NCBI GenBank assembly: GCA_049695995.1
Contig: JBAVTF010000137.1
Span: forward strand, 107-64,106
DNA: 64,000 nt
Direction: 5' to 3'
Source of the DNA: Pirellulales bacterium
GTDB lineage: Bacteria; Planctomycetota; Planctomycetia; Pirellulales; UBA1268
Positions 42,689-64,000 of the stretch are shown here, piece by piece. The position numbers and the translations under genes were made by a program. Position 1 is the stretch's first letter; each line of letters begins with the position of its first letter. The notes under the pieces were generated by a model. It searched no databases, was not told the origin of the DNA, and saw only the letters and a program-made list of their open reading frames with translations.

Positions 42689-42691
42689 GGG

Positions 42692-46707: not shown

Positions 46708-46734
46708 GCCTCCCGCCCAAACGGGCGGGGAGGC
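46708..46734 (-). terminator. hairpin in the rplL-rpoB spacer (attenuator/terminator)
   Basis: GCCTCCCGCCC-AAAC-GGGCGGGGAGGC, about 32 nt after the rplL stop on the minus strand, followed by CTGGCGGGTTTGTCC. The position matches the known rplL-rpoB attenuator of other bacteria. Confidence 0.55.
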
Positions 46735-46765
46735 AGGGGCGCAACGGACTCGGCAGAGAGGCGGG

Positions 46766-47188: not shown

Positions 47189-47373
47189 CGCTCGAGGTCC
47201 TTTCCCTTCGAAAAAATGCTGCCGCCGGGTGACGGCGACCGCGGTAAAGTGGTGTGGTTTGTGGAGATGGAGTGCCTGGGGACCGTATTGGCCCGCCCTG
47301 CGGCGAGCCTTCCTTCATACCATCTGATTCGCCGGAGTGAAGCCCGTCCCAGAAAATTCCGGGCGCCAGCCAC

Positions 47374-47925: not shown

Positions 47926-47962
47926 GAGTGGGAACTTTCAGCGAGAGAGGCGTTGGATAGTG

Positions 47963-48649
47963 TCAGGCGGCAACCATGATGCCGGGGGTCATCGTGCCGC
48001 AGATCGAGATGCTCTTCACGTACTGGCCACGCACGCTCGACGGCTGCAGCGACAGGATGTGATCAATGAATGCCCGGACGTTGTCGACGAGCTTTCCCGA
48101 ATCGAAGCTGAACTTGCCGACCACTGCGTGCACGATGCCCGTGGGATCGTTACGAAACTCGACCTTGCCGGCCTTGTACTCGCTCACGGTCTTCTTGATG
48201 TCGGCCGTGACCGTTCCCGCACGCGGACTGGGCATCAGGCCGCGGGGACCGAGCACTTTGCCGAGCGGTCCGACGAGACCCATCATGTCGGGTGCCGCGA
48301 TGCAGACGTCAAAGTCGGTCCAGCCTTCCTTGATCTTCTTGGCAAGATCGTCCGCTCCGACCTCTTCGGCGCCTGCCGCCTTCGCGTCGTCGGCCAGGTT
48401 GCCCTTCGCGAACACGACCACCCGCTTCGACTTGCCGATGCCGTGAGGCAGCACGAGCGAGCCACGGATGATCTGATCCGCCTGCTTCGGGTCGATGCCC
48501 AGCCGCATGTGGATCTCGACCGTCTGGTCGAACTTGGTCGGAGGAAACTTCTTCAGGGCCGCGACGGCCTCGGCAAGAGACAAAGGGGCCTCGATCTGCG
48601 GCTTCACGGCGAGCATGGCCCGCATGCGCTTGGTGCTGGCGACGGTCAT
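47963..48649 (-). CDS. rplA: 50S ribosomal protein L1
   Basis: 228 aa. [34 protein letters not shown]. Confidence 0.95.
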
Positions 48650-48700
48650 GAGTCAGGGTCTTTCGCGGAATGAATGGAACGTGAACGGTGATCGGAGGGC

Positions 48701-49126
48701 TCAGCCCTCCACGGTGATGCCCATGCTGCGGGCGGTGCCTTCGACCATGCGGCGGGCATGCTCGCCGTCACGGGCATTGAGGTCGGCCCCCTTGAGCCGC
48801 ACGATCTCGTCAACCTGCGCCTTGGTGACCTTGCCGACCTTGTCGCGGTTCGGCACGCCGGACCCCTTGGCCAGGCCGGCAGCCTTCTTCAAGAGGGCCG
48901 CCGCCGGCGGGCTCTTCGTGATGAAGTCGAAGGAACGGTCGTTGTAGACGGTGACCACCACCGGGATCGGCATGCCAGCCGCCTCGCGGGTGCGGTCGTT
49001 GAACTGCTGGACAAACTGGCCGAGGTTGATACCGAACCGGCCAAGCGAGGTGCCCACCGGCGGCGCCGGGGTGGCCTGACCACCTGGCACCTGGAATTTC
49101 GCCTGTCCAACCATCTGTTTCGCCAT
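48701..49126 (-). CDS. rplK: 50S ribosomal protein L11
   Basis: 141 aa. [27 protein letters not shown] and [20 protein letters not shown]. Confidence 0.95.
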
Positions 49127-49166
49127 TGCAACAATCCTCTCGTCAGCAAGTCGCTAGGTGTCGGGT

Positions 49167-49937
49167 TCAGACCGATTCGATCTGCCAGTATTCAATATCC
49201 ACGGGGGTCGAGCGGCCAAAGATGCTGAGCATCACCGTCACGCGGCCGTTGGCCTCGTCGATCTGCTCGACCTCGCCCTCGAAGTTCTCGAAGGTGCCCT
49301 CGTTGATCTTCACGCGGTCGCCCTTCTTGAAGTTGATCTTCAGCCGCGGAGCCTCGGCAGTCTTCTCCTCGGCCTTGTTGAGCAGCTTGGCCACGTCCTG
49401 AGGGAGCATGGGGCTCGGCCGGCCGGCGGATCCGGTGAAGTCACCAATGCCGCCGGTCTCCCGCACGAGGTACCACGTCTCGTCGTTCAAGATCATGTTC
49501 ACCAGGATGTATCCCGGATAGAGCTTGCGAGAAACGACGCGTTTTTTGCCCCCTTTGAACTCAGTAACCTGCTCCTTCGGCACGACGACGTCGCCGAAGA
49601 ACCGGTCGAGGCCCTGGAGGGAAATCCGGCGGAGAAGAGTCTCGCGGATCGAATCCTCCCGGTTGCTCTGCACCTTGAGGATGTACCACTGCTTGTCGCC
49701 CACCGCGGGCGCGCCCGCGGCTTCGGCGGCGACCTCGACAGGCGTGGCGTTCTCGTCACCGGCGAACGGATCTTCGAGTTCAGCAGGGGTGCCGTCGTCC
49801 TCGTCCTCGGCGGCGTCGGCCACCACCGGCGGCGATGCATCTGCGGCGGCCCCATCAGCCGAGGCCGGGTGCGGCAGGCCAGCAGCCTCGGGAGCCGCCC
49901 GTTCACCGTCCATCGGATCGTCGAATGTTGCAGTCAT
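49167..49937 (-). CDS. nusG: transcription termination/antitermination factor NusG with acidic N-terminal extension
   Basis: The NGN domain starts at KQWYILKVQSNRE. KOW segment GDRVKINEGTFENFEGEVEQI. About 80 aa of Asp/Glu/Ala/Pro-rich N-extension. Confidence 0.9.
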   Translation of the reverse strand: MTATFDDPMDGERAAPEAAGLPHPASADGAAADASPPVVADAAEDEDDGTPAELEDPFAGDENATPVEVAAEAAGAPAVGDKQWYILKVQSNREDSIRETLLRRISLQGLDRFFGDVVVPKEQVTEFKGGKKRVVSRKLYPGYILVNMILNDETWYLVRETGGIGDFTGSAGRPSPMLPQDVAKLLNKAEEKTAEAPRLKINFKKGDRVKINEGTFENFEGEVEQIDEANGRVTVMLSIFGRSTPVDIEYWQIESV

Positions 49938-49953
49938 GTCGCTATTCCGGTCG

Positions 49954-50466
49954 TCAGGTGATCTGCAGCACGTACCGCAGGATGAACCACCAGAAGAGAT
50001 CGTACCCAGCCAAAATCGCCGCCAACGCGAAGATCAAAAAGATAATCACGGCGGAACTGCGGGCCACCTCGCCCCCGCTTGGCCACGACACCTTCGCCAT
50101 TTCCGCCTCGACCGCGATCAGGAAGTCGGCGAAGCGCGGCACGTTGACCAGCCGGTAGCAGAACCAGAGCCCCGCCGCGAGCAGCAGGCCCGGCACCAGA
50201 AACCGCACCACACCGATGTCGCCGAACGCCGAAAGTCCCGGTGCCGCGTCGGCAGGGAGGTCGCCGGTCGGCAGCGCACCGGTGCCCGCGAACCAGAGCG
50301 GCAGTAGCTGGGCGAGTCGCCATACACCGATCCCGACGATCAAGGCCAGGGCGGCGAACGTCAACTGACGCGCGAGCCGCCCCTGCGTGGGCTTGTAGAC
50401 CGAGGCGCTGAGGAACTCTCCCCAGATACTGCCGCCGCGGACGTGATTCTCTTGTGTGCTTGCCAT
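49954..50466 (-). CDS. secE: preprotein translocase subunit SecE (3-TM form)
   Basis: Start at MASTQENH. The C-terminal part FLIAVEAEMAKVSWPSGGEVARSSAVIIFLIFALAAIL is the conserved SecE core. Position between tRNA-Trp and nusG. Confidence 0.8.
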   Translation of the reverse strand: MASTQENHVRGGSIWGEFLSASVYKPTQGRLARQLTFAALALIVGIGVWRLAQLLPLWFAGTGALPTGDLPADAAPGLSAFGDIGVVRFLVPGLLLAAGLWFCYRLVNVPRFADFLIAVEAEMAKVSWPSGGEVARSSAVIIFLIFALAAILAGYDLFWWFILRYVLQIT

Positions 50467-50539
50467 CTTGCGCTCCGTCGCCGGACTGCCCGCCCGCGGG
50501 GCCACGGCGCGCCTGGTGACGCGCCGCGGCAACTGCGTG

Positions 50540-50612
50540 CAGGGGCGGCGGGGATCGAACTCGCAACCTCTGGTTTTGGAGACCAGCGCTCTGCCAGTTG
50601 AGCTACGCCCCT
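50540..50612 (-). tRNA. tRNA-Trp (anticodon CCA)
   Basis: The reverse complement reads AGGGGCGTAGCTCAACTGGCAGAGCG-CTGGT-CTCCAAA-ACCAG-AGGTT-GCGAGTTCGATCCCCGC-CGCCCCT-G. One A-C mismatch in the T stem. Confidence 0.9.
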
Positions 50613-50618
50613 GTGTTC

Positions 50619-50657
50619 GCCGGGCTTCGAGTCAACCTCGAAGCCCGGCTTGTTTTA
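50619..50657 (+). terminator. 13-bp perfect hairpin plus T-tract, oriented as a plus-strand intrinsic terminator
   Basis: GCCGGGCTTCGAG (50619-50631), loop TCAAC, CTCGAAGCCCGGC (50637-50649), then TTGTTTTA. It sits in the tuf/tRNA-Trp spacer, whose genes are on the minus strand. Confidence 0.5.
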
Positions 50658-50687
50658 ACCGCTCCGGGGCCGGGACCCCGGACTCAT

Positions 50688-51887
<1,200 letters not shown>

Positions 51888-52005
51888 GCTATCTCCTGCT
51901 TTCTCCTCGGAAAGAAAAACCGAACGTGTGGTTGCGAACTGCTCGTTTGAAACTGACCGTCGTCGGGAGCCCAGGGCCGTCAGGCCGCCATGCCACCCGC
52001 GGAAG

Positions 52006-52078
52006 AGCTGCTGAAGGGACTTGAACCCTTGACCTCGTCCTTACCAAGGACGTGCTCTACCAACTGAGCTACAGCAGC
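52006..52078 (-). tRNA. tRNA-Thr (anticodon GGU)
   Basis: The reverse complement reads GCTGCTGTAGCTCAGTTGGTAGAGCA-CGTCC-TTGGTAA-GGACG-AGGTC-AAGGGTTCAAGTCCCTT-CAGCAGC-T. Confidence 0.9.
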
Positions 52079-52165
52079 AATGTTGACTCGATGGGCACCG
52101 AAATGACGTGACTGAAAAACTGGGGAGTGAACGATATGGTCGAATGTGTGCGGAACGGCTGGAAA

Positions 52166-52236
52166 AGCGGGTAGAGGGAATCGAACCCTCGTCTTTAGCT
52201 TGGAAGGCTATTGCTCTACCATTGAGCTACACCCGC
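52166..52236 (-). tRNA. tRNA-Gly (anticodon UCC)
   Basis: The reverse complement reads GCGGGTGTAGCTCAATGGTAGAGCA-ATAGC-CTTCCAA-GCTAA-AGAC-GAGGGTTCGATTCCCTC-TACCCGC-T. 71 nt. Confidence 0.9.
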
Positions 52237-52273
52237 ACGGGGCGACACACAGACACGCGGAAGGGGACCTGAC

Positions 52274-52355
52274 TGGGGAGTGCAGGATTCGAACCTGCGA
52301 AGGCATAGCCATCAGATTTACAGTCTGACCCCTTTGACCGCTCGGGAAACTCCCC
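52274..52355 (-). tRNA. tRNA-Tyr (anticodon GUA)
   Basis: The reverse complement reads GGGGAGTTTCCCGAGCGGTCAAAGGGG-TCAGA-CTGTAAA-TCTGA-long variable arm-GCAGGTTCGAATCCTGC-ACTCCCC-A. 82 nt. Confidence 0.9.
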
Positions 52356-52568
52356 GCTGTGTTGTGGTGCCACTGGGCTCGTGTTCGGGTCGGCGATGGG
52401 TTCTCTGCGAGGATGGTGGATGGTGTGAGGTGAATGATCGGTTTGCGAACGTATTCGAGCCGTCTCGAGGTCACCGCGTCGCGCCAGCAGGCCGCGCCGC
52501 CGCATCCCAGCCCCGCCCATGCACAGGCTTCCGCGAGGAAGCCCGAAACCACGGGCGGCGTCGTGCTG

Positions 52569-52641
52569 AGCTAGCGGCGGGAGTTGAACCCGCAACCTGC
52601 TGATTACAAATCAGCTGCTCTGCCAATTGAGCTACGCTAGC
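52569..52641 (-). tRNA. tRNA-Thr (anticodon UGU)
   Basis: The reverse complement reads GCTAGCGTAGCTCAATTGGCAGAGCA-GCTGA-TTTGTAA-TCAGC-AGGTT-GCGGGTTCAACTCCCGC-CGCTAGC-T. Confidence 0.9.
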
Positions 52642-52831
52642 GGCTGGTCAGAACCGCGAATCGACCAAGTGTACGGATTCGAAAAGGCCATGCAAGACGG
52701 CCTGTTGCCCCCCGCATGATCGGCGATTTCCGGGCCCAACCCCACCCGGACACCCGCCGCCCACCCCCCGGCCGCACCATCCGCGAAATCGGTAGCTGGA
52801 TGTGGTGGCTGGAAAAACGCTCTGCGTGGCT

Positions 52832-52919
52832 CGCCGGCTCGGGGGCGGTACAAGTTTCGTCGCGGGACCTCGAAGACTCGGTCCAAATGCTCCTCAAGCT
52901 TGCACCGACCCCCTCGCCT
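52832..52919 (-). repeat. about 90-nt element, family 2, copy C
   Basis: CGCCGGCTCGGGGGCGGTACAAGTTTCGTCGCGGGACCTCGAAGACTCGGTCCAAATGCTCCTCAAGCTTGCACCGACCCCCTCGCC. Slightly more diverged than copies A and B. Lies about 80 nt from family-1 copy 4. Confidence 0.75.
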
Positions 52920-53000
52920 ACCCGCTGCGGTGCTCGTGGCTGTGTCACGCCGCGTGGGCCGGTCACGGCGTGACCGGGCTACTTCAGCGCAACAGACGGC

Positions 53001-53145
53001 CGGGAGGGGTTGCCTGTGCCCCGGAGCCGGCGTTTGCTGACCAGCGCAGGCTGGATGCCGAAGCGCAGTCATCATCGAGCGAGCGAAGGACAGGATGTCC
53101 GTAGCGAGCGTCCGGCGACGGGGCATGGGCAACCCCGACCCTACC
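53001..53145 (+). repeat. MITE-like intergenic element, family 1, copy 4
   Basis: CGGGAGGGGTTGCCTGTGCCCCGGAGCCGGCGTTTGCTGACCAGCGCAGG...CGTAGCGAGCGTCCGGCGACGGGGCATGGGCAACCCCGACCCTAC. Confidence 0.8.
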
Positions 53146-53204
53146 AACACCGGTCGAATGCCTTTCGGCCCTCCGAAACAGAGCCTTGAAGCACGTGACG
53201 GGCG

Positions 53205-54386
53205 TTACCGGAACGTCAGTTCGAGCATCGAGAAGTCATCTTGGAAGTCGTCGCGGCCGGAGATCGACCGGACGTGGGAGACGAGGGCGTCCATTGGGTT
53301 GGCCGTGGCCGGCCGAGACGACAGCGCGGCGAGGAAGTCCTTGAACGGCCACATTGAGCCGTCAGTCAGGCCGATCTCGAAGGCGCCGTCGCTATACACG
53401 AAGAGGCGGGAACCAGGAGCCACCTGGGTTTCGCTGGAGTCGAATTCGAGGCCGTCCACGGCGCCGATCAGGGGGCCGTCGGAGTCGAGTAACCGCGGCT
53501 CCGCGCCGTCGGGCCCTAGGAGCAGGGCCGGAGGATGCCCGCCGCCAGCCCACCGGAGCCGTCCGGACGGGGCATGGTGCACGCCGTACCAGATGGTGAA
53601 GAACATGTCGTTCTGCCGCTCCATCGGGAAGGCTTTGTTGAGGGCCGCCAGGACGGCGCCGGGATCGTGGAAATCGGTCTGCGGCAGAGCCTCGCTGCGG
53701 ATCGCGTTGAGCGCCGACACGGAGAGCAGCGCAGCCCCCACGCCGTGGCCGCAGACGTCGAGCAGATAGATCGCGAAATGCTCGACGTCGAGCTGGTGGT
53801 AGCCGAAGGCGTCGCCACCGAGCGCTTCCGACGGAATGAACCGCCAGTCGGCAGACACGGAGCCACTCTGCTGCGGCGGCGGCAGGAGCGATCGCACATA
53901 CTGGGCCGCCGTGGCCAGGTCGTTGGCCAGCGTCTGCTGGCTGGCCTGAAGCGCCGTGAAGGCTTCGTTGCGCTCGAGCAGGGCAACGTAGCCCCGCGAG
54001 TGGTACCGCACCCGGGCGATCAGCTCGAGCCGGTCGGGCAGCTTCACGATGTAGTCGTTGGCCCCCACCGCGAAGGCCTCAGCCTTCACCGCCGGCTCCT
54101 CCTTCGTGGAGAGGACGATGATCGGCACGTCGCGAAACCGCTCGTCGGCCCGGAACTGCCGCACGAGCGAGAGCCCGTCGATCTCCGGCATCACGAGATC
54201 CTGGAGGATCACCGTCGGCTGCACTTCCGCGGCCTTCTGCAGGGCCGCCGGAGCGTCTTTGCAGTAGTGGAAGGCGATTCCCGGCTCATCGACGAGCATC
54301 CGACGAACGGCCTCGCCGATGATGGGCTGGTCATCGACGAGCAGCACAGTGGCGACGCGGGCAGCAGGCGTAGCGGGAATAGCCAT
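53205..54386 (-). CDS. response-regulator receiver domain fused to PP2C/SpoIIE-type Ser/Thr phosphatase (RsbU-like)
   Basis: Start at MAIPATPAARVATVLLVDDQP. Receiver motifs (DD, ILQDLVMPEIDG, STKEE, K in DYIVKLP). The PP2C region is GGDAFGY...YLLDVCGHGVGAAL...LFVYSDGAFE. Confidence 0.85.
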   Translation of the reverse strand: MAIPATPAARVATVLLVDDQPIIGEAVRRMLVDEPGIAFHYCKDAPAALQKAAEVQPTVILQDLVMPEIDGLSLVRQFRADERFRDVPIIVLSTKEEPAVKAEAFAVGANDYIVKLPDRLELIARVRYHSRGYVALLERNEAFTALQASQQTLANDLATAAQYVRSLLPPPQQSGSVSADWRFIPSEALGGDAFGYHQLDVEHFAIYLLDVCGHGVGAALLSVSALNAIRSEALPQTDFHDPGAVLAALNKAFPMERQNDMFFTIWYGVHHAPSGRLRWAGGGHPPALLLGPDGAEPRLLDSDGPLIGAVDGLEFDSSETQVAPGSRLFVYSDGAFEIGLTDGSMWPFKDFLAALSSRPATANPMDALVSHVRSISGRDDFQDDFSMLELTFR

Positions 54387-54444
54387 GTGATCACGTCCGA
54401 GGGCCGATGCCCTGGATGCTACCACGCCTGCCCCCGGACCGGCT

Positions 54445-54912
54445 TCACTGTTGGGCTGACCGCGCCGTTTGCCGCTTGGGGCGGCATGTGGGAGACGACT
54501 CGAGGGAGAAGGCAAGAAGTTCTTCGCCGGTCACCGTTGAGATGTCATGGTGCACGCTCACGAGCTTGACGCCCGTGGCGGCTTCCACGACCTCCTCCAG
54601 CCGCGGCCGGCCGGTGGCCACCATGTGGGCCCGCACCTGCTTGAGCAAGGCGCGGCCGTTGCCGTTTCCCGACTCGTGGCCGTTACCCGCGGCGTGGGCT
54701 GCAGAGGTGGCCGGGTGGCCGTCGGGCTCGCCGCCGGCGCGCGGCGCGATGAGCTGCCGCTCCGCCGGCGTGAGCACGCCCTGCAGCCGCACGACGAGGA
54801 GCGACCCGACCAGGTGCGCATGGATGTCGCGCGGCCCCCGGCCGATGAACTCCTGCTGGAACCGCGACACGCCGTCGCAGACGGCGGCCTCGATCTCGCC
54901 CTGCGACTTCAT
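54445..54912 (-). CDS. DUF2294 (MpsC-like) domain protein, paralog 1
   Basis: MKSQGEIEAAVCDGVSRFQQEFIGRGPRDIHAHL...VSVHHDISTVTGEELLAFSL. The first 13 aa are identical to the ORF at 56173. It carries a low-complexity insert with GNGHESGNGNG. Its start lies 2 nt after the csrA stop. Confidence 0.75.
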   Translation of the reverse strand: MKSQGEIEAAVCDGVSRFQQEFIGRGPRDIHAHLVGSLLVVRLQGVLTPAERQLIAPRAGGEPDGHPATSAAHAAGNGHESGNGNGRALLKQVRAHMVATGRPRLEEVVEAATGVKLVSVHHDISTVTGEELLAFSLESSPTCRPKRQTARSAQQ

Positions 54913-54914
54913 GG

Positions 54915-55178
54915 TCAGGCCTCGCGGCGCTGGCCATCCCCCGTCCGTGCGGTCATTCCGGCGGCCGCCGTGGCTGCCTGACCATCGCCGTTGCCGTTGC
55001 CGTTGCAGATCCTGTCCCAGACCTCGCGGCGGTGGATCGGCATCCTGGTATCGGCCTCGAACCCGAGCCGCACGCGGCCCCCTTCGATCTCCAGCACCGT
55101 GATCTCCAGAGCCACCGACATGTCCTCAGGCCGGCCGATCACCACGCTTTCCCGATTCTTTCGTGTCAGCACCAACAT
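54915..55178 (-). CDS. csrA: carbon storage regulator CsrA homolog
   Basis: MLVLTRKNRESVVIG....ITVLEIEGGRVRLGFEADTRMPIHRREVWDRI matches the CsrA pattern MLxLTRKxxExxxIG..I.VxVL.I.G..VRLGI.AP..V.IHR.EV. It has a roughly 10-aa insert and a C-terminal tail with NGNGNGDG. Confidence 0.8.
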   Translation of the reverse strand: MLVLTRKNRESVVIGRPEDMSVALEITVLEIEGGRVRLGFEADTRMPIHRREVWDRICNGNGNGDGQAATAAAGMTARTGDGQRREA

Positions 55179-55216
55179 GGGTCACCTTCTTCATGGTTGC
55201 GGGTCCCTCCAGGGGG

Positions 55217-55732
55217 TCAGGCGCGGACGGCTCCTCTGCCGCCCGTCACGTACGGTCCGTTGTGCGAAGAGGCCACGGCACCGGCGAACTGATCGCGGGC
55301 CATCTGGCTGTGCGACGCGTGCAGATGAGCGTCGATGGGGACGCCGAGCGTCGGTAGTCCCTGGCCAAACAGGAACAGGTCGACGTCGGGATGGGTCGTG
55401 AACGTTTTGAGCACGCTGCCCGTCTCGACATCGACATGGGCGATCGCGCCGTGGAGCTGCACGCCCGTCGCCTCGCGAATGTGCTCGATGAACGACTCGA
55501 CGGCGTGCTGGAAGAGTTCGTGGTGCACGTTCCGCACGCGGTCAGCACCGGCCGGACTGCGGGCCAGCCTCCGCTCCACGCAGGAAAACGGCTCGTGCAG
55601 ATTCACCACCATCCAGTCGCGGGTCGCCACCACCGACACGCTCGTCGGGGACCGGCCCAGCAGCAGATGCTCGAACGTGCCGGCGGCGTGCGCCACCTGG
55701 CGGGCGAGTCGATCGACGAAGAGTCGCGTCAT
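55217..55732 (-). CDS. divergent DUF2294-like protein, paralog 3
   Basis: Start at MTRLFVDRLARQV. The layout mirrors DUF2294 (..GRSPTSVSVVATRDWMVVNLHEPFSCVERRLA...FIEHIREATGVQLHGAIAHVDVETGSVLKTFT). Similarity is weaker, so the call is tentative. Confidence 0.5.
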   Translation of the reverse strand: MTRLFVDRLARQVAHAAGTFEHLLLGRSPTSVSVVATRDWMVVNLHEPFSCVERRLARSPAGADRVRNVHHELFQHAVESFIEHIREATGVQLHGAIAHVDVETGSVLKTFTTHPDVDLFLFGQGLPTLGVPIDAHLHASHSQMARDQFAGAVASSHNGPYVTGGRGAVRA

Positions 55733-55977
55733 GAAAGCGGAACGCCATCGGGTGAGGGAAGTGTGTTGTGTTGTCCGGCACAAACGAAAAAAGCCGGCGG
55801 GAAAGAACGCCCGAAGGCACTCTCTCACGCCGGCTTACGCTGCGACGGACCTCCCGGCATCTGGCCGGGCTGCCCCTCGACTCGTCTTCCGTCTTGTTGT
55901 GGTGGGCGATCACGAAGACCGCCCTTTTCCTCGACCTCGACGCATGCTTGGGCGTCGTCGTTGTCGGGGAACGCCGG

Positions 55978-55986
55978 GATTATATT
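55978..55986 (+). promoter_or_regulatory. AT-rich GATTATATT box (candidate -10 region), second occurrence
   Basis: Identical 9-mer to 29704-29712, again in a divergent intergenic region (55733-56172). Confidence 0.25.
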
Positions 55987-56006
55987 GGGGGGTCTGGGGA
56001 ACGCAA

Positions 56007-56018
56007 GGAAAATTTTCC
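56007..56018. promoter_or_regulatory. perfect 12-bp AT-rich palindrome GGAAAATTTTCC (candidate operator)
   Basis: Perfect dyad 21 nt downstream of the GATTATATT box, in the divergent gap between two DUF2294 genes. Confidence 0.3.
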
Positions 56019-56172
56019 GGCTCGCGTGGTCGCCTGGTCGCGCATCCCGTTTAGATCGCCCAGACGGACCGCGTCGGAGGACGTGTGATGCCCGTCGGTC
56101 ACTTGCGCCGAAACACCTCCTGCACAAAGCACCCCCCCCTCAGTGGGGTTCGCGTCACCAAGTGAGCAGGCC

Positions 56173-56559
56173 ATGAAATCCCAGGGCGAGATCGAGGCCG
56201 CCGTGTGCGATGCCGTTTCGCGATTTCAGCAGGAATACATGGGCCGTGGCCCGCGAAACGTGCACGCGCACCTGATCGAGAACCGCCTGTTCGTGCACTT
56301 GGAGGGCGTACTGACGGCAGCGGAGCAACGGCTGCTCGACGGCGATGGCGTTGCCAACGGCCGTGGCGCTGAACTGCTCAAACAGTTGCGAAACCAGCTC
56401 GTGCTGGCCGGGCGGCCGATGCTCGAGTCACTCGTCCGCGACGCGGCAGGATCCCCTCCGATCAGCGTGCATCACGACATCAGTCCGGCGACCGGCGAAG
56501 AGGTACTCGTGCTCACCCTCGCAGCCGCCCCTACCTGCCGCGACAAGCGGCGGAAATAA
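56173..56559 (+). CDS. DUF2294 (MpsC-like) domain protein, paralog 2
   Basis: MKSQGEIEAAVCDAVSRFQQEYMGRGPRNVHAHLIENRLFVHLEGVLTAAEQRL...ISVHHDISPATGEEVLVLTL. 128 aa. Start chosen by alignment with the paralog at 54912. Confidence 0.75.
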   Translation: MKSQGEIEAAVCDAVSRFQQEYMGRGPRNVHAHLIENRLFVHLEGVLTAAEQRLLDGDGVANGRGAELLKQLRNQLVLAGRPMLESLVRDAAGSPPISVHHDISPATGEEVLVLTLAAAPTCRDKRRK

Positions 56560-56605
56560 CCGTCTCCCAGTCGGTGGCCGAAGGCGTTCGGCCCATCGGA
56601 TCGCC

Positions 56606-56657
56606 GGCGGAGCGGGGGCCTGAGCCGCCCCCGCCCGCCGGCGGTTTTGCTTGTTTT
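56606..56657 (+). terminator. intrinsic terminator/attenuator after the DUF2294 gene
   Basis: GGCGGAGCGGGGG (56606-56618) pairs with CCCCCGCCCGCC (56628-56639) with one bulged A, followed by GGCGGTTTTGCTTGTTTT. Confidence 0.55.
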
Positions 56658-56770
56658 CCCGCAAGGCAGGCCCTGCCGCGGCACCGGCGGCATTGTGATG
56701 CAAGGGGGAAGGAGAGTAGGGTTTCCCGGAGAGGTGGTGTGACCCCCGCCTGTTCGCCGAGTGCTTTCCG

Positions 56771-57088
56771 ATGGTGGCCCTGCTCACCGCCCTGGCGATT
56801 CTCTTCGCCTCCTTCGCGCACTCCCCGGTGCAGACGCCGGGGACTTCGATCACCAAGGCAACTGACTGCGATTCCGATTCTGGTGTCGCTGAGCATGCGA
56901 GCCGGGATGCGGAAGAGGACGCCCCCGAGGAGTACGACCTGAAGGCCGCCGGCGCATGGGGCTGGGCGGCGACCACGCCCCTGCTGCCCCCGGCGTCGTG
57001 CCGCCTCGGAAGTCTACAGGCCCACACGGCCTGGCCGGCCGCTGGACGCCAGCATGGGCCCGGTGTGGTTCGCGGTCCTCCCGCCTGA
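56771..57088 (+). CDS. candidate small secreted protein in the dabA leader (uncertain)
   Basis: 105-aa ORF with a signal-like N-terminus MVALLTALAILFASFAHSPVQ and an acidic middle. GC3 is high in parts. No homology recognised. It could be a non-coding leader. Confidence 0.3.
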   Translation: MVALLTALAILFASFAHSPVQTPGTSITKATDCDSDSGVAEHASRDAEEDAPEEYDLKAAGAWGWAATTPLLPPASCRLGSLQAHTAWPAAGRQHGPGVVRGPPA

Positions 57089-57213
57089 CGGGCGGATGGT
57101 CGGTCGGCATCGCCCCCCGCGTTGCCTCGCCGGCTGCCACCGCTTCCGCCCGCCGTCCTCCGTCTGTTTCCTCCGCGGCGCTGTCACGCGCTCTCTCCCC
57201 ATTCAGCCTGCGC

Positions 57214-60186
57214 ATGCCTGTCTGCGATTCCACTGCCGAAGACCTCGAGCGAATCATCGCCGCAGCAGCACACTTCCTGCCTGCCCAGGGGCCGATCGGT
57301 GTCTTCGTTCACCACAACACGCTGCATGCCTTCGAGAACCTGCCCTTCGAAGACGCGGTCATCAAGGCCGCGCGGACCTACGGCACGGAACCCTTCCTGA
57401 GCGAAAGCCGGTTTCGCGAGGAACTGGCCCGAGGCCGGATCCTGGCCTCCGATATCGATGCCGTGCTGGCCGAGCATGACGCATCGACCACGACCACACT
57501 GGTGGCAGGCGGTCGCGTGCGGCTCCGCGACCTCCACCGGGCCCTCCTCCTCAATCCCGTCCGCCATGAGAGCGACGTCGCCGTTCGCTGGACGCTCACT
57601 GAAAGCGACGCGATCGCGAGGCTGCGGCCCGACCTGGTTGCCGCCGCTGACGATGATGCCGCTCGGGCAGCAGCGAACGACCTGTGGCATGCCTGCATCG
57701 AGGCAGTCGCTCTCGCCCGGCCCTCCATCCAGTCAGTCCCTCCTCCAGTTCGATTCCGCGACCTGCTGCTCGCCGTCGATCCCGCAGTCGATACCGATGC
57801 CCTGGTGCATCCGCTCCTCATTCGGCTCTGCGCTGCCTTTCTCGATCAGGGCGTGGCAGCCTGGCGAATGCCCGGCCGCAGCAAGGGACTCCTCGCGGCC
57901 GTCACGCGGCTCTATTCGGCGGGCTGGGGACCCTCGGAACCATGGAGCCACCGCCTGCCGCCGGCGTTTCGCGAGGCCGCCGGCCGGCCAGCCCTGGAGT
58001 GCATCACCATCGAGCTCGATCGGCTGGGCATCCCGCCGGAACGACGGCAGGAGTTCATCGTGCAGTCGTTGCTCGCGCTGCGCGGCTGGGCGGGCATGAT
58101 CCATCATCTCGAGGAACGTCCCGATCGGGCACCGGTGGAGCAGTTGCCGGCCCGATTGACCGACTTCGTGGCGGTCCGACTGATCTGCGACCGCGTCGCC
58201 ACCGAATGGGCGGCGAGCCGGCTGCGCGGCACCCGCCGCGACCCGGCCGAACCGCCGGCGCTCACCGCACTATGGTGGGAGCTTCAGGATCACCATCCCT
58301 CGCGGCGCGGGCCCGGCAGCGTGGCCCGCGCGTACCTCCTCCACCAGGCCGGCCAGCTCGTCGGCCTCACGGCCGCCGACATCCGCAGCCTCGACGACAA
58401 CGAGTTGCTGCGGTTCGAGCAGGCCATCACGTCGTTCGACGCCATGACACGGCGCCGGCTCTTTCACCTCGCCTACGAGCGCCGCTATCGCGTCACGCTG
58501 CTCGACGCGCTGTCGGCACATGATCGCATCGCGGCCCCTCCCGCAGGCCCGCGTCCTGCAGTGCAGTGGGTGCTCTGCATCGACGAGCGGTGCGAATCCT
58601 TTCGCCGCAACGTCGAGGAACTCGGCGACCAGCACGAGACGTTCGGCACGGCCGGGTTCTTCGCCGTGCCGATGTACTTTCGCGGACTCGACGACTGGCA
58701 CGCGACACCGCTCTGCCCGATCGTCATGCGACCCCGGCACGCGGTGCTCGAAGTGCCCGAGGGGAGCGCCGCCGATCGCCATGCGATGCATCGCTCGTTC
58801 CGCCGTCGCTACGGCCAGCTCACTGGCAGCCTTGCCGCCACCAGCCATTCCGTGCTGCGCGGCGGCCTGTTCGCACCGCTGATCGGCGGCCTGTCCGCCG
58901 TGCCCCTGGTGGCCCGCGTCGCCTTTCCAAGGCTCTCGGCCCGACTGGGCCGCGTGGCGACGGAGTTCACCCGCCGCCGGATCACGACGCGGCTTGACCT
59001 CGAAAGCGGAGGGCCGACGAGCGGCAGTGACCCGGCCGCGGGTTTCGACGTGGCGGAGATGGCCGAAATCGTTCGCCGCGTCCTCGAGGACATCGGACTC
59101 ACGACGCGGCTCGCGCCGCTCGTCGCTGTTCTGGGGCACGGCTCGTCGAGCCGCAACAATCCGCACGAAAGCGCCTACGAGTGCGGCGCCTGCGGCGGCG
59201 GCCGCGGGGGCCCCAACGCGCGGGCCTTCGCGATGATGGCCAACGATCCGCGGGTGCGGGAACGTCTGGCGGCAGATGGCCTGGCAATTCCTCCCAACAC
59301 GTGGTTCGTCGGGGGCATGCTCGACACCTGCGCGAGTACGATCACCTGGTACGACACAGATCTCGTGCCCCCCGGACAGACTGCGGCCGTCGCAGCCTTG
59401 CGGGCCACGGCGGAACGGGTAGCCGCCGCGGATGCCCGGGAGCGGTGCCGTCGCTTCGACTCAGCGCCGCTCGATATCACCGCTGCAGAGGCCCGTGTTC
59501 ACGTCGAGTCGCGGAGTGTCGATCTGGCCCAGGTGCGGCCGGAACTGGGGCACGCGACCAATGCCGCCTGCATCATTGGTCGCCGCTGGCGAACCAGGGG
59601 TCTCTACCTCGACCGGCGGGCGTTCCTGGTTTCCTATGACCCGTCGACGGATGGCGACGCCTCGATCCTCGCTCGAACACTCGCTGCCGTCGGGCCCGTC
59701 GGCGCCGGAATCAACCTCGAATACTACTTTTCCGTCGTCGATCGCCTCGGCTATGGGGCAGGCACGAAGCTGCCACACAACATCACGGGACTGATCGGTG
59801 TGATGGATGGGCATGCCAGCGACCTCCGAACCGGCCTGCCGTGGCAGATGGTCGAGATCCACGAACCGGTCCGCTTGCTCGTCGTCGTCGATGCCACGCC
59901 GGAGGCCATCCTCGCGGCAGCGGCACACGTCCCCGCCGTGGCCCGGCTCGCTGCGAACCGGTGGATCCAGCTCGTCTCGTGGCATCCCGTGTCAGGTGAA
60001 TTGGCGATCTTTCGTGACGGCAGCTTCGAGCCCTACGCCCCAGAGCGACAGCTGCTGCCCGAGGTACGCCGCTCCCGCGACTGGTATGGCGGACACCGCG
60101 GCCATCTCGAGCCGGCGGTCATCCAGAGCTGCCTCACGTCGAATGTTCAAACGGGGCGTCCCGCGGCAACGGAGAACCTCTCGTGA
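57214..60186 (+). CDS. dabA: DabA (DUF2309) inorganic-carbon transporter subunit, beta-CA-like
   Basis: Start at MPVCDSTAEDLERII. PIGVFVHHNTLHAFE, WVLCIDERCESFRRNVEE and GHGSSSRNNPHESAYECGACGG give the Cys/Asp...His/Cys pattern of the DabA zinc site. About 990 aa. The upstream 86 codons of the track ORF are rejected. Confidence 0.9.
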   Translation: MPVCDSTAEDLERIIAAAAHFLPAQGPIGVFVHHNTLHAFENLPFEDAVIKAARTYGTEPFLSESRFREELARGRILASDIDAVLAEHDASTTTTLVAGGRVRLRDLHRALLLNPVRHESDVAVRWTLTESDAIARLRPDLVAAADDDAARAAANDLWHACIEAVALARPSIQSVPPPVRFRDLLLAVDPAVDTDALVHPLLIRLCAAFLDQGVAAWRMPGRSKGLLAAVTRLYSAGWGPSEPWSHRLPPAFREAAGRPALECITIELDRLGIPPERRQEFIVQSLLALRGWAGMIHHLEERPDRAPVEQLPARLTDFVAVRLICDRVATEWAASRLRGTRRDPAEPPALTALWWELQDHHPSRRGPGSVARAYLLHQAGQLVGLTAADIRSLDDNELLRFEQAITSFDAMTRRRLFHLAYERRYRVTLLDALSAHDRIAAPPAGPRPAVQWVLCIDERCESFRRNVEELGDQHETFGTAGFFAVPMYFRGLDDWHATPLCPIVMRPRHAVLEVPEGSAADRHAMHRSFRRRYGQLTGSLAATSHSVLRGGLFAPLIGGLSAVPLVARVAFPRLSARLGRVATEFTRRRITTRLDLESGGPTSGSDPAAGFDVAEMAEIVRRVLEDIGLTTRLAPLVAVLGHGSSSRNNPHESAYECGACGGGRGGPNARAFAMMANDPRVRERLAADGLAIPPNTWFVGGMLDTCASTITWYDTDLVPPGQTAAVAALRATAERVAAADARERCRRFDSAPLDITAAEARVHVESRSVDLAQVRPELGHATNAACIIGRRWRTRGLYLDRRAFLVSYDPSTDGDASILARTLAAVGPVGAGINLEYYFSVVDRLGYGAGTKLPHNITGLIGVMDGHASDLRTGLPWQMVEIHEPVRLLVVVDATPEAILAAAAHVPAVARLAANRWIQLVSWHPVSGELAIFRDGSFEPYAPERQLLPEVRRSRDWYGGHRGHLEPAVIQSCLTSNVQTGRPAATENLS

Positions 60187-61523
60187 CTCACCACGATTTG
60201 GTTTCGGCACTCGTCGTCGCCCAACTCGCCGCCCCTGCGGCCGCGCTCGTCGCCATCGGCCTGCCGGCGCTGCTCGGCCACCCCCTGTCGGAAAGGCTCA
60301 CGCGGCGGAGCGTCGCCACCGGCTTTGCCGTGGGCTTCCTTGCCGCAGCCGCCACGCTCGCGCTCGTGGCCGCCCGTGGCTGGCGGGCCGAGATCGTCAA
60401 CGTGGGCACCTGGTTCGTCATCGGCCACCACGAGCACACGATCAACCTCGTGGCCGACCCGCTCTCCACGCCCTACGTCTGTTTCTCCACCGGCCTGTGC
60501 TGGCTCGTGAACGCATTTGCCGGAAAGTACCTGCACCGGGAGCCGGGGTTCACGCGGTTCTTCGTTCTCCTGGCGCTGTTCGGCACGGGCATGAACCTGA
60601 TGGTGCTCGCCGACAGCATCGACGTCTTGTTCGTGGGCTGGGAATGCCTCGGTATCTCCTCGGCCCTGCTCATCGGCTTCTTCCACGAGCGGCGCAACGC
60701 CATCGATGCGGCGCTGCGTGCCTACACGACGTACCGCGTGTGCGACGTGGGCCTGCTCGTGGCGAGCGTCGTCGTGCATCGGGCCGTGGGCTCAGGGGCG
60801 TTCGAGCGGCTGTTCACGACCGACTGGCCTGATGGAAATTGCCTGCTGCCTCAGGCGACGGCGTCGGTCGTGGCCCTCCTGCTCGTCTTCGCGGCGCTCG
60901 GCAAGACCGCCCAGGTGCCGTTTTCGGCCTGGCTCCCCAGGGCGATGGAAGGCCCGACACCGTCGAGCGCGATCTTCTACGGCGCGTTGTCGATCCATGC
61001 CGGCGCCTACGTGCTCCTCAGGTGCGGGCCGCTCCTCGACGAGGCACCGCTGGCCCGCGGGGCATTGCTGGTGATCGGTGCCGGCTCCGCCCTGCACGCG
61101 GCGGTGGTGGGCCGGGTGCAGACCGACCTCAAGAGCATGCTCGCCTATGCCTCGATGGCCCAGGCCTCGCTGATCCTTGTCGAGATCGGTCTTGGGTGGC
61201 GGCTCATTCCGCTCGTGCACGTGGTGAGCCATGCGATCCTGCGCAGTCTCCAGATCCTGCGGTCCCCATCGGCGCTGCACGACCGCCATGAGCTCGAGGC
61301 AGCGATCGGCGGTCCCGTATTGAGTGGAGGCTCGGGGCTCGTCGGCCTCCTGCCGGAAGGCTGGCAGGTCCGGCTCTATCGAATCGCCCTCGACCGCGGA
61401 TTCGAGGAGATGGCTGTCGGGCGGTTCGTGGTCGCACCGGTGATGGCGGCACTCCGTCGAGCGGCGGCCATCGAGAACGCCTGGATCGCCTGGCTGGCCG
61501 GCGAACATGGAGGACGACCGTGA
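60183..61523 (+). CDS. dabB: NuoL/ND5-like proton-conducting membrane subunit (DabB-like)
   Basis: GTG overlaps the dabA stop (GTGA). GKTAQVPFSAWLPRAMEGPTPSSAIFYGALSIHAGAYVLLR and LKSMLAYASMAQASL are the PF00361-type core motifs. 446 aa. Confidence 0.85.
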   Translation: MTHHDLVSALVVAQLAAPAAALVAIGLPALLGHPLSERLTRRSVATGFAVGFLAAAATLALVAARGWRAEIVNVGTWFVIGHHEHTINLVADPLSTPYVCFSTGLCWLVNAFAGKYLHREPGFTRFFVLLALFGTGMNLMVLADSIDVLFVGWECLGISSALLIGFFHERRNAIDAALRAYTTYRVCDVGLLVASVVVHRAVGSGAFERLFTTDWPDGNCLLPQATASVVALLLVFAALGKTAQVPFSAWLPRAMEGPTPSSAIFYGALSIHAGAYVLLRCGPLLDEAPLARGALLVIGAGSALHAAVVGRVQTDLKSMLAYASMAQASLILVEIGLGWRLIPLVHVVSHAILRSLQILRSPSALHDRHELEAAIGGPVLSGGSGLVGLLPEGWQVRLYRIALDRGFEEMAVGRFVVAPVMAALRRAAAIENAWIAWLAGEHGGRP

Positions 61524-63001
61524 TGCCCGCCGAATCGAACGTCGTCCTGGCGCTCGCGGCGGTGACCGTCGGGCTGCCAGTGTGTGCCGCGGCCGTCGTC
61601 GTCACCGGCGCATGCGATCGCAGGCTGCGGGACGTCGCCGTCGCAGCGCTGCTCGCCGCACTGCTCGCCGCCGGCGGCGTGACCATGACGTGGAACCTCG
61701 CCGGCGGCCGCCCGATCACGATTGGCAGCCAACTCGCCGGTGGATCACTCGTCGCCATCGACGGCCTCTCGACGCTGCTGATGCCCTACGCGGCGTTTGT
61801 CTCGCTGGCCATCCTGCTCGCGGCTCCCCGTCGGGCTCTCGATGCCGCGGGGGTCGCCCGCACGCTCGCGGGCACCGGTGCGACGCTGGCGATGTTCGCC
61901 ACCTCGCACCCGTTCGCGATCCTCGCTCTCTGGCTGGTAACCGCCGCCCTCACGTGGGTCTCCACCCGCGCAACGCCGGGAGGCCGCGGCGCGGCCCGGG
62001 TTTTCGCCATCGCCATGACGACGGCCACGGCGGCCATGACGGTCGGCACCGGCCTGCTCATCAGCGATCCGCCGTGGGAGCGGGCAAGCGGACCGCTCGG
62101 CATCGCGGGGGGCTGGCTCGTCGCCGTCGCCGTGATGATCCGCAAGGGCATCGTTCCATTTCACTCCTGGTATCCGGCGCTGTTCAGCGGGGCCCCGATG
62201 TCGGCGGCGCTCGCGGCCACCATGCCCCAGGTGGCGGCCTACTCCGCCGTGCGGCTGCTCATCGGCCACGTCGATCATGCCGCGGGTCTCGCGCCGGAAC
62301 TGGAGTTCCTTTCCAACGTCGCCCTCGTGACCGCCGTCTACGGCGCGGCCCTGGCACTCGTACAACGCGAGCTGCGCGGGTTCATCGGCTTTCTCGCCAT
62401 GAGCCAGTCGGCGATGGTGCTGGCCGGCCTTTCGGGCACGCTCCCGCTGGAGCTGTCCGGCGCCCTCTGCGTCTGGATCTCGAGCGGCCTGTCGCTCACG
62501 GGCATCGGACTTGTGACCTGGGCACTCGAAAGCCGGGCCGGGCCGATCCGCCTCGACACGCCCCAGGGCCGGTTCTGGGACGCACCGGCGCTGGCTGCCT
62601 TCTTCCTGCTCTTCGGCCTCGCCGGGAGCGGCCTCCCTGGCACGCTCTCATTCGTGGCCGACGACCTGATCGTGTCGGGCAGCCTCGATGAGAAGCTGTA
62701 CGGCGGCCTGCTCGTCACCGCCTCGACGGTGCTGTCTGGAATCGCGGTGATGCGCTGCTGGTTCTTCGTGTTCGGCGGCCCGACCGCTCTTGATGGGCCG
62801 CGTCACGCGATCCTCCGCCGCGAGCAGCTGGCGCTCTCGGCCCTGCTCCTCACGCTGTTCGCGCTCGGCCTCGTTCCCGATCCCTTGGTTCGGGCCATTG
62901 ACAGAGCTGCTGAACAGCTCCTCCATCCCGTGTCTGCCACCTCCATTTTCCCTGCCTCCGTTTCCTCCTCTAACGTTCCCCAGGAGATTGCCACGCCATG
63001 A
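61520..63001 (+). CDS. second antiporter-like (NuoM/NuoN/MrpD-like) membrane subunit
   Basis: GTGATG start overlaps the upstream stop. About 14 TM. KGIVPFHSWYPALFSGAPMSAALAATMPQVAAYSAVRLL and LRGFIGFLAMSQSAMVLAGL resemble diverged PF00361 motifs. Confidence 0.7.
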   Translation: MMPAESNVVLALAAVTVGLPVCAAAVVVTGACDRRLRDVAVAALLAALLAAGGVTMTWNLAGGRPITIGSQLAGGSLVAIDGLSTLLMPYAAFVSLAILLAAPRRALDAAGVARTLAGTGATLAMFATSHPFAILALWLVTAALTWVSTRATPGGRGAARVFAIAMTTATAAMTVGTGLLISDPPWERASGPLGIAGGWLVAVAVMIRKGIVPFHSWYPALFSGAPMSAALAATMPQVAAYSAVRLLIGHVDHAAGLAPELEFLSNVALVTAVYGAALALVQRELRGFIGFLAMSQSAMVLAGLSGTLPLELSGALCVWISSGLSLTGIGLVTWALESRAGPIRLDTPQGRFWDAPALAAFFLLFGLAGSGLPGTLSFVADDLIVSGSLDEKLYGGLLVTASTVLSGIAVMRCWFFVFGGPTALDGPRHAILRREQLALSALLLTLFALGLVPDPLVRAIDRAAEQLLHPVSATSIFPASVSSSNVPQEIATP

Positions 63002-64000
63002 CGCCGTTCCTTGCATGCCCATCCCTGCTTGGCTCACTCCCGCCTGCGGTTCTGGCGATCGCCTCGGCCGATCAGCTTGCCCGAATCCTCGAGTCGCTCG
63101 AGCGCAATCTCCTCACGCCGATCCCGCTCTGCTTCGTGCTGGGCATCATCTGCACGCGGATCCACGGCGGCATCAAGATCCCGAAGGAGCTCTATCTCTC
63201 GATCGCCATCTTTTTGCTGATGTCGATCGGCTTCGTCGGTGGCCACGAGCTGGCCCACGAGTATCAGGCCCACGGCGTCTCCACGATCTGGAAGCCGGCG
63301 CTGGCAACGCTCTTTCTCGGCTGCCTGACCCCGATCACGTCGTTTCTCGTGCTCCGGTATCTCGGCCGCCTGTCGATCGCGGATTCGGCGGGTATCGCGG
63401 CCCACTACGGCAGCACGTCGGCCGTTACCTACGCCGTCGCCAATTCGTTCGTGGAACAGACCCAGCATCCGGCCAACAGCTTTCTGCCGACGCTTGTCAC
63501 GATCCTCGAATGCCCCGGCATCGCGATCGCGCTCGTACTGGGGGCGGCGCTCATGGCCCAGGAACGGGCCGCCAAGGCGGGAGCCCGGGGAGGGAAAGCG
63601 CGGGAAGGCAAGCTCGGAGAGGCGCTGTACGAGGTGATGACCGGGCAATCGATCATGCTCATGGCCGGACTGCTCGTGATCGGCTTCATCTCGACCATGT
63701 TCATGTCTGAGCAGGCGTTCCAGCCCTTCTACGACTTCTTCCAGAGCAAGGGCATGCTGTTCCGCGGCGCGCTCTGCATCTTTCTCCTCGAGATGGGGCT
63801 CGTGGCAGGCGAACGCCTCGGCGACCTCTTGAAGGTCGGACCGTTCCTCGTGGCGTTCGGCATCGGTATCGCCCTCGTGCACGGGTTCCTCGGCGCCTAT
63901 TTCGGCCATCTTGCCGGCCTCAACCTCGGCGGCTGCACGGTGCTCGCCGCGATCGTGGCCAGCGCCTCCTACATCGCCGCACCCCCCGCCGTGCGGCTCA
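62998..64000 (+). CDS. sbtA: SbtA-type sodium-dependent bicarbonate transporter family permease (3' partial, runs off the window)
   Basis: Not in the ORF track because there is no stop in the window. I translated it by hand from ATG 62998, which overlaps the upstream stop (ATGA). IAAHYGSTSAVTYA, FYDFFQSKGMLFRGALCIFLLEMGL and LVHGFLGAYFGHLAGLNLGGCTVLAAIVASASYIAAPPAVR align closely with my recollection of cyanobacterial SbtA. Confidence 0.85.
   Translation, partial: MTPFLACPSLLGSLPPAVLAIASADQLARILESLERNLLTPIPLCFVLGIICTRIHGGIKIPKELYLSIAIFLLMSIGFVGGHELAHEYQAHGVSTIWKPALATLFLGCLTPITSFLVLRYLGRLSIADSAGIAAHYGSTSAVTYAVANSFVEQTQHPANSFLPTLVTILECPGIAIALVLGAALMAQERAAKAGARGGKAREGKLGEALYEVMTGQSIMLMAGLLVIGFISTMFMSEQAFQPFYDFFQSKGMLFRGALCIFLLEMGLVAGERLGDLLKVGPFLVAFGIGIALVHGFLGAYFGHLAGLNLGGCTVLAAIVASASYIAAPPAVRL

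Follow-up and report, generated by a model that had tools for sequence, protein, structure and literature searches.

The last genes of a 64,000-nucleotide stretch of the Pirellulales contig JBAVTF010000137.1 (the whole of which is called the window below) form an operon that we read, with a probability of roughly 0.72, as a system for inorganic-carbon acquisition, in which a distinct class of DAB complex, composed of DabA, a short DabB and a NuoM-like third subunit, is joined to SbtA and SbtB. Outside cyanobacteria, DAB complexes are the chief CO2-uptake pumps known, and the way in which ion flow drives their carbonic anhydrase in one direction is being actively studied, with first structures from 2026. 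Five genes stand in one row: dabA, the short dabB (gene 2), the gene of the third subunit (gene 3), sbtA and sbtB. The last is seen on contig L001, which is 100% identical to window positions 60275-64000 (3726 nt) and extends 540 bp beyond the window end. A Pfam search placed the first four genes in the families that an earlier reading of this DNA, the original prediction, had named for them (Table 1). The same five genes occur in L087-L089, the window's closest relatives, with third subunits that are 87-88% identical.

A conserved trio of genes

The first three genes travel together strictly. An exhaustive phmmer search with the third subunit against 1.84 billion representatives gave, at E<=1e-30, relatives in 182 clusters (counted at 50% identity), most of them full-length and 30-45% identical. 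From 185,579 species genomes a scan recovered 93 relatives, 80 of which were kept as reference loci. Short DabB is encoded directly upstream of the third subunit in 75 of these 80, the contigs of the other five beginning at or within gene 3, and DabA lies upstream in 62. A second sample consisted of 80 soil-type loci, mostly on Joint Genome Institute (JGI) metagenome contigs, with third subunits of 34-40% identity; here short DabB was found at 52/52 loci with at least 1.4 kb of upstream sequence, and full DabA at 22/22 with at least 4.6 kb. Four distant relatives that were sampled (43, 37, 33 and 30% identity, one of them labelled Myxococcota) all keep the order DabA-short DabB-third subunit, with proteins of 995-1047, 447-473 and 473-491 amino acids, respectively. 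The third subunit thereby shows a trait of DabC, that of an obligate third gene in a dabA-dabB operon.

The lineage had been called planctomycete-like, and all close relatives are indeed metagenome-assembled genomes (MAGs) of Planctomycetota. Labels of the 80 reference loci are nearly all Planctomycetota or its orders, and we suspect that several 'Kuenenia' labels and one Chitinophagaceae label among them are mislabels. A word-indexed search for the third subunit returned 437 close relatives, and among the 120 listed (64-100% identical) the few with a taxon name are Pirellulales or Planctomycetia.

Each of the three overlapping stop/start junctions reported originally was read directly in the sequence: GTGA at 60183-60186 between dabA and gene 2, GTGATG at 61520-61525 between genes 2 and 3 (the stop TGA being 61521-23), and ATGA at 62998-63001 between gene 3 and sbtA. 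They do not arise by chance, because the spacing is conserved in related loci, with an overlap of 4 nt at the first junction in 46/57 and at the second in 54/70, and a spacing of -7 to +19 nt at the third in 15/15. Junctions that are tight or overlapping suggest that the products are made together. Gene 3 probably starts at the ATG at 61523, which has GGAGGA 8 nt upstream and is the start called in public data; an exact-product look-up found the ATG-start product on public record, and neither the GTG-start product nor the gene 2 product.

The DabA subunit

Read from 57214, dabA encodes a beta-carbonic-anhydrase-like cytoplasmic subunit of 990 amino acids. The Cys/Asp and His/Cys pattern noticed in the original prediction falls on the zinc-site motifs of the solved DabA2 (9rd0_A; alignment 2.6e-64), with C464/D466 (CIDERCE) and H642/C657 (GHGSS...ECGACGG) in register. 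The zinc ligands of DabA2 are C351, D353, H524 and C539 (PMC13147460). These motifs are conserved in the 49 relatives that made up the DabA conservation set, and the protein is most likely, to judge from its sequence, the subunit of a vectorial carbonic anhydrase with a predicted role in energy-coupled CO2 hydration. Hydropathy places a hydrophobic hairpin at about residues 551-571, in which no acidic residue is conserved at the place of DabA2 Glu444. The start at 57214 is uncertain. The longest open reading frame begins at 56956, giving 86 open codons before that ATG, a stretch rich in Pro, Ala, Arg and Ser, and gene callers put longer starts in relatives (1021-1039 amino acids); conservation of the family begins about 18 residues after 57214, and not in the 56956-57213 extension.

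A truncated DabB and a full-length NuoM-like protein

In the NCBIfam collection the models matched are of NuoL type for gene 2 and of NuoM type for gene 3, and every score is far under the equivalog cut-offs. Short DabB, of about 450 amino acids, consists of the NuoL-like transmembrane helices (TM) 1-11 and, after them, a conserved tail in the cytosol, about 80 amino acids long. Alignments to PDB entries end at NuoL residue ~357-370, which is the end of TM11, and hydropathy detects no hydrophobic segment after residue ~359, so that TM12-16 are absent. Residues E154, D188, K241, H346 and H350 correspond to NuoL E144, D178, K229, H334 and H338, while R354 replaces NuoL K342 and Y266 replaces H254. 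All seven positions, which include the TM5 Glu, the TM7 Lys and the TM11 His-His-Arg, are invariant in the 66 relatives of the DabB conservation set, and none of the 66 has a TM12. The stretch after TM11, LRSLQILRSPSALHDRHEL, is likewise invariant in them and occupies the region equivalent to H328/R331 of Thermocrinis albus DabB, which in DAB1 contact DabA beside the catalytic Cys (bioRxiv 10.64898/2026.05.01.722082). Short DabBs of distant loci, at only 33-52% identity, have the identical truncation and tail. The protein belongs with DabB by its PF00662 and PF00361 domains and by its TM5, TM7 and TM11 proton-path residues, but lacks TM12-15.

With 492 amino acids and 14 TM, the third subunit has the full length of a NuoM/MrpD-like protein. 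Its best PDB match by sequence is NuoM/ND4, over residues ~200-480, and from residue ~77 it is collinear with NdhD and Nqo13. An AlphaFold2 model (predicted local distance difference test, pLDDT, 68.9; predicted template-modelling score, pTM, 0.74) has MrpD and NuoM as its top Foldseek matches, with template-modelling scores of ~0.80 over ~490 columns. In this model R207, with K208 beside it, lies at the TM7 break, and D380/D381 lie in the broken TM12.

Residue landmarks were checked on Escherichia coli NuoL, NuoM and NuoN and followed through a close family of 120 sequences and a wide family of 105 (25-70% identity). At the position of NuoM TM5 E144 the close family has Cys, Ile, Val or Leu, and the wide family is never acidic (Ala, Ile, Val, Thr, Leu or Gly). 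At that of TM8 K265 a Gln is invariant in the close family and Gln, Met, Leu or His is found in the wide one. The position of TM7 K234 carries an invariant Arg with an adjacent Lys in the close family, and Arg in 102/105 sequences of the wide family, and the region of TM12 E407 holds Asp in the close family and Asp or Glu in 105/105 of the wide (the D381 column). The protein therefore lacks the TM5 Glu/TM7 Lys pair and the TM8 Lys by which an active antiporter-like subunit is recognised, and keeps the charged TM12 residue. Three subunits, with a second antiporter-like protein among them, had been put forward as one possibility in the original prediction, which went too far in speaking of two proton/sodium channels, because gene 3 is without the TM5 Glu and TM8 Lys and gene 2 without TM12-16.

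Two other accounts of this protein were rejected. It is not a decayed pseudogene, since it has more than 400 close homologs, conserved residues, a ratio of non-synonymous to synonymous change (dN/dS) of 0.10-0.18 in close pairs, which indicates purifying selection, and a gene linkage that stays strict across deep divergence. Nor does it consist of the lost C-terminal helices of DabB fused to a DabC-like half, because its N-terminus, which holds a conserved IDGLS motif, is collinear with NuoM/NdhD TM1-6 and the model has the full MrpD/NuoM fold.

Attachment of sbtA and sbtB

The complete SbtA, which ends 122 bp beyond the window on contig L001, has 374 amino acids and matches PF05982 at 1.7e-91 over model positions 1-307 of 308; its sole PDB match is the Synechocystis SbtA Slr1512 (7cye_A, 9.1e-25). 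The original prediction had pointed beyond position 64000 for an sbtB, and a PII-like sbtB does lie 65 nt after sbtA, its product matching solved SbtB structures at 8e-8. By its sequence, SbtA is a member of the Na+/HCO3- symporter family, with bicarbonate import as its predicted function.

Only 15 of the 80 reference loci, together with L087-L089, have sbtA after gene 3. Neither sbtA nor MpsC was found beside the trio in the 80 soil-type loci, and the four distant loci that were sampled have no sbtA-sbtB. All operons linked to sbtAB fall into one clade of a neighbour-joining gene 3 tree. The attachment of sbtAB is a trait of one planctomycete subclade, and not of the DAB class. Operons of the sbtAB type also stand elsewhere in unrelated contexts, next to UxaC, AcrB and PAPS reductase.

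SbtA is 84-94% identical to its relatives, against 62-66% for DabA. A recent horizontal insertion of sbtA-sbtB was considered and rejected: the five genes are alike in synonymous divergence (pS 0.45-0.6) and in G+C at third codon positions (GC3, 0.80-0.87), SbtA differs only in its lower non-synonymous change, and the operons are monophyletic. Equal pS and GC3 with fewer non-synonymous changes in SbtA mean that the sbtAB linkage is old within the clade.

Some further genes were seen next to related operons. L016 carries a second Sbt_1 paralog (15680-16693; PF05982, 8.9e-102) some 2.7 kb beyond the sbtB of its operon, and in L087 an AbiEii toxin-family gene (13097-13672) immediately follows sbtB. 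In L094, whose third subunit is 33% identical, dabA is immediately preceded by a SulP-family gene (1751-3433; PF00916, BicA family), so that the DAB class is paired with a candidate bicarbonate transporter a second time, independently.

Proposed mechanism and alternatives

In the mechanism that we favour, DabA would hydrate cytoplasmic CO2 at a buried zinc site, and ion flow through the NuoL-like DabB would make the hydration one-directional, the coupling passing through the conserved cytosolic segment after TM11. The third subunit would adjoin DabB in the way that NuoM adjoins NuoL and that, in DAB1, the small DabC adjoins its DabB. SbtA would add a Na+-coupled import of bicarbonate, gated by the PII-like SbtB. 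In what is probably a heterotrophic freshwater planctomycete, the most likely role of such a system would be to supply bicarbonate for carboxylations when inorganic carbon is scarce. The third subunit retains only the charges nearest the DabB interface (TM7 Arg and TM12 Asp/Glu) and has lost those of its proximal half, and DabB has lost its distal half; the retained NuoL-facing charges and the missing half of DabB fit a third subunit in the NuoM position.

Several points weigh against the carbon-acquisition reading. Direct observation covers the families of the proteins, their conserved residues, the strict linkage of the genes and the structure of the operon; to it we add by inference the assembly of the three proteins into a trimer, its stoichiometry, the ion used and the part played by the third subunit. 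Without the canonical TM5 Glu and TM8 Lys, ion conduction by this subunit may be nil. DabB has no TM12 Lys and DabA has no equivalent of Glu444, which leaves the route of the ion at the periplasmic side unexplained. Three loci (L059 8496-11374, L066 2064-4948 and L068 8487-11359) keep genes 2-3 without an adjacent dabA, directly after a response-regulator gene, with the 4-nt overlap and a dN/dS of 0.07-0.13; a fourth, L064 (2405-6041), keeps them beside an internally deleted dabA remnant only, and the range for all four is 0.07-0.18. These loci hint at a possible role of genes 2-3 that is independent of DabA.

Could the third subunit be a structural scaffold, one that, like DabC of DAB1, conducts no ions, and that stabilises the truncated DabB? 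The complete lack of the TM5 Glu and the replacement of the TM8 Lys across the wide family would agree with this, as would the example of T. albus DabC, which is essential although it is hydrophobic at the proton-path positions and lacks a water chain (bioRxiv 10.64898/2026.05.01.722082). However, the two buried charges in TM7 and TM12 stay near-invariant over 30-88% identity, and all 14 TMs are kept although DAB1 manages with half, which is hard to explain by scaffolding alone; the scaffold is a possibility that we regard as doubtful. Equally tentative, and not what we would expect to prove right, is a split ion path, in which the TM9-13 half of the NuoM-like subunit supplies the periplasm-facing half-channel (TM12-13) lost from DabB. 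The ion would then pass laterally from the TM12 Asp/Glu of the third subunit to the TM5 Glu and TM7 Lys of DabB, much as from NuoM to NuoL. If so, the class could represent an ancestral form resembling complex I and Mrp, from which DAB1, with its vestigial DabC, and DAB2 would be derived by reduction; in DAB2, which has no third subunit, the finger Glu of DabA would have taken over.

The loci without dabA raise the question of whether genes 2-3 are an autonomous Mrp- or NDH-like cation-transport pair, with the adjacency of dabA reflecting co-regulation. MrpA/MrpD and NuoL/NuoM are known ion-translocating modules, and MrpD and NuoM are the structures nearest to the model, which speaks for such a pair along with the intact genes 2-3 of L059, L066 and L068. 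Against it, at every other locus with sufficient flank dabA is immediately upstream, usually overlapping; DabB retains the motif after TM11 that contacts DabA in the solved DAB1; DabB alone is inactive in the tested systems (bioRxiv 10.1101/476713; PMC6689103); and the MAGs without dabA at this locus may hold it elsewhere. An autonomous pair is improbable. We give still less credence to a single physical supercomplex of DAB and SbtA, with CO2 hydration mechanically coupled to bicarbonate symport. The ATGA overlap of gene 3 and sbtA, the close spacing in all 15 reference loci and an arrangement that is stable within its clade, with equal synonymous divergence for the five genes, are what such a complex would lead one to expect, but tight spacing speaks of co-expression and not of contact, SbtA works alone elsewhere, and sbtA-sbtB is confined to the one monophyletic subclade. 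The original prediction had considered a tie of SbtA to the DAB module: the two do share an operon here, but the tie is not system-wide and no physical complex is evidenced.

Genomic setting of the operon

Three genes with an MpsC domain, a csrA-like gene and a response-regulator/phosphatase gene precede dabA (Table 1), as a conserved block of regulatory appearance that the original prediction had overlooked. The start of the last is uncertain, its relatives having 392-444 amino acids; it stands at the equal position in L002, L004 and one more contig, and in 21/80 reference loci. Further upstream, on the minus strand, follow a tRNA cluster and the gene of EF-Tu (50688-51887). After MpsC gene 3 comes a terminator-like hairpin (56631-56644) with a T-rich tail, which suggests that this gene is transcribed apart from dabA. 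When the dabA leader was scanned with Rfam and for promoters, only this hairpin came up, and neither a riboswitch nor a sigma-70-like promoter.

Table 1. Positions and domain matches of the operon genes, the upstream block and the similarity breakpoint (window numbering)
Feature	Position	Strand	Evidence
Response-regulator receiver + SpoIIE/PP2C phosphatase gene	53205-54515	-	PF00072 7.5e-21, PF07228 4.5e-42
MpsC-domain gene 1	54445-54912	-	PF10057, 1.3e-29; conserved synteny
csrA-like gene, between two MpsC genes	54915-55178	-	PF02599, 3.1e-17; position kept in relatives
MpsC-domain gene 2	55217-55828	-	PF10057, 1e-13
MpsC-domain gene 3, directly upstream of dabA	56143-56559	+	PF10057, 8e-27
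Similarity breakpoint	56760-56770		blastn of window against L079, L074, L075, L057
dabA (start uncertain)	57214-60186	+	PF10070, E 3.6e-230, 766.7 bits, model 1-747/747
Short dabB (gene 2)	60183-61523	+	PF00662 1.6e-9 and PF00361 2e-41; NCBIfam NuoL-type
Third subunit (gene 3)	61520/61523-63001	+	PF00361, 2e-18; NCBIfam NuoM-type
sbtA	62998-64000 (window end); stop at window-equivalent 64122	+	PF05982 Sbt_1, 5.7e-73 for the part in the window
sbtB, PII-like, 103 amino acids	64188-64499 (window-equivalent)	+	contig L001; PF00543, 2e-14

Of 39 planctomycete loci whose contigs reach far enough upstream, 14 have an MpsC homolog as the neighbour just before dabA, 10 have sbtA downstream, and no locus has both; the combination was seen only in the window and in L088/L089. 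MpsC has been described as dispensable and as not collocated with mpsAB outside staphylococci (Fan et al., PMC6689103). The planctomycete loci contradict the second of these statements, and the recurrence of MpsC genes next to dabA in a second phylum reopens the question of MpsC function.

The upstream block also precedes dabA-gene 2-gene 3 in other planctomycete contigs, where a DUF87 gene follows and not sbtA. Nucleotide identity between the window and L079, one of its closest relatives, is 90-93% over 53183-56755 and 66-71% from ~56768 through gene 3, and gene 3 of L079, L074 and L075 falls in a distant clade of the gene 3 tree. To judge from the drop in identity and the distant clade, the locus stayed conserved while the entire operon in it seems to have been exchanged in one of the two lineages.

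Elsewhere in the window, positions 38000-54000 have a G+C content of 63-65%, against 68-71% in most of the remainder, and include a cluster of tRNA-Thr/Gly/Tyr/Thr, EF-Tu and tRNA-Trp. At 7634-8089 ARAGORN calls a permuted transfer-messenger RNA (tmRNA) that overlaps tRNA-Ser (7996-8085); at the Rfam gathering threshold only the tRNA is returned, and the tmRNA call is probably false.

Comparison with known systems

In the literature searched we found neither a planctomycete DAB nor one that pairs a truncated DabB with a third subunit of the PF00361 type; the coverage of that literature is incomplete, so that an earlier mention is possible. Described DABs had been taken in the original prediction to be two-component only, which is incorrect: DAB1 of Halothiobacillus neapolitanus is a three-gene cluster (bioRxiv 10.1101/476713), the third gene of which, hneap_0908, encodes a small membrane protein (PMC13144422), and DAB1 of T. 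albus is a DabA-DabB-DabC heterotrimer (bioRxiv 10.64898/2026.05.01.722082). Its DabC is about half a NuoM, has no Pfam match, is essential and aligns with those helices of NuoM that adjoin NuoL (same source). DAB1 shares with the planctomycete operon the three subunits, a long DabA (~1000 amino acids; 1046 in H. neapolitanus DabA1), a NuoL-like DabB with the TM5/TM7/TM11 residues and the cytosolic segment after TM11, and a third protein related to NuoM; the gene order in T. albus would be A-B-C as well, judging from synthetic-gene inserts and a C-terminal tag on DabC. The two differ in the third protein, which in DAB1 is small, without a Pfam match and hydrophobic along the proton path (DabC being compared by its description) and here is a 14-TM PF00361 protein. 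They differ also in DabB, since the H. neapolitanus DabBs have 551-559 amino acids (bioRxiv 10.1101/476713), DabB1 being the one of 559, and the T. albus structure contains TM12-15 (bioRxiv 10.64898/2026.05.01.722082), whereas the protein described here ends after TM11.

DAB2 (PDB 9rd0) and Staphylococcus aureus MpsAB have in common with it the DabA zinc site, a NuoL-like partner and the expected function, an ion-gradient-driven CO2 hydration that rescues cells free of carbonic anhydrase. Unlike the trio they have two subunits only, with 15 TMs (PMC13144422) and a short HL helix in DabB2, and in DAB2 the Glu444 of the DabA2 finger motif takes the place of NuoL K399/D400 and acts together with TM12-13 of DabB2 (PMC13144422). 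Against the dispensable MpsC of S. aureus stand three MpsC paralogs that flank dabA here.

The CO2-uptake module NDH-1MS of cyanobacteria (NdhF3/NdhD3/CupA) likewise sets a CO2-hydrating cytoplasmic protein on a pair of NuoL-like and NuoM-like subunits, and NdhD3 (6tjv_D) aligns with residues 77-478 of gene 3. However, no CupA homolog, redox module or NDH-1 core genes adjoin the operon, and genes 2 and 3 score higher to NuoL/NuoM models than to those of NdhF3/NdhD3. MrpA/MrpD and NuoL/NuoM share the fold (Foldseek 0.80) and the adjacency of a NuoL-type and a NuoM-type gene; there is here no MrpB, C, E, F or G and no other Nuo gene, the NuoL-like protein is truncated, and the NuoM-like one is without the TM5 Glu and TM8 Lys. 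Among solved structures the sole or best homologs come from the cyanobacterial SbtA-SbtB, which has the same order of a full-length PF05982 permease and then a PII-like protein; here the pair is joined into a DAB operon in a planctomycete.

These comparisons are best read as placing the locus in a third architectural class of DAB, apparently undescribed and widespread. In soil and freshwater metagenomes the class is common, and its third subunit, a DAB subunit in our reading, is annotated there as 'NuoM'; surveys that count PF10070 and one PF00361 gene would miss it as part of the system. It bears on the coupling mechanism and on the evolutionary origin of DABs, for which it is a plausible link between Mrp/complex-I modules, the vestigial DabC of DAB1 and the two-subunit DABs. 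Because the part of DabB that one model takes for the periplasmic half-channel (TM12-13, with the finger Glu of DabA) has been removed and a whole second antiporter-like subunit with two invariant buried charges kept, it offers a natural experiment between models of coupling.

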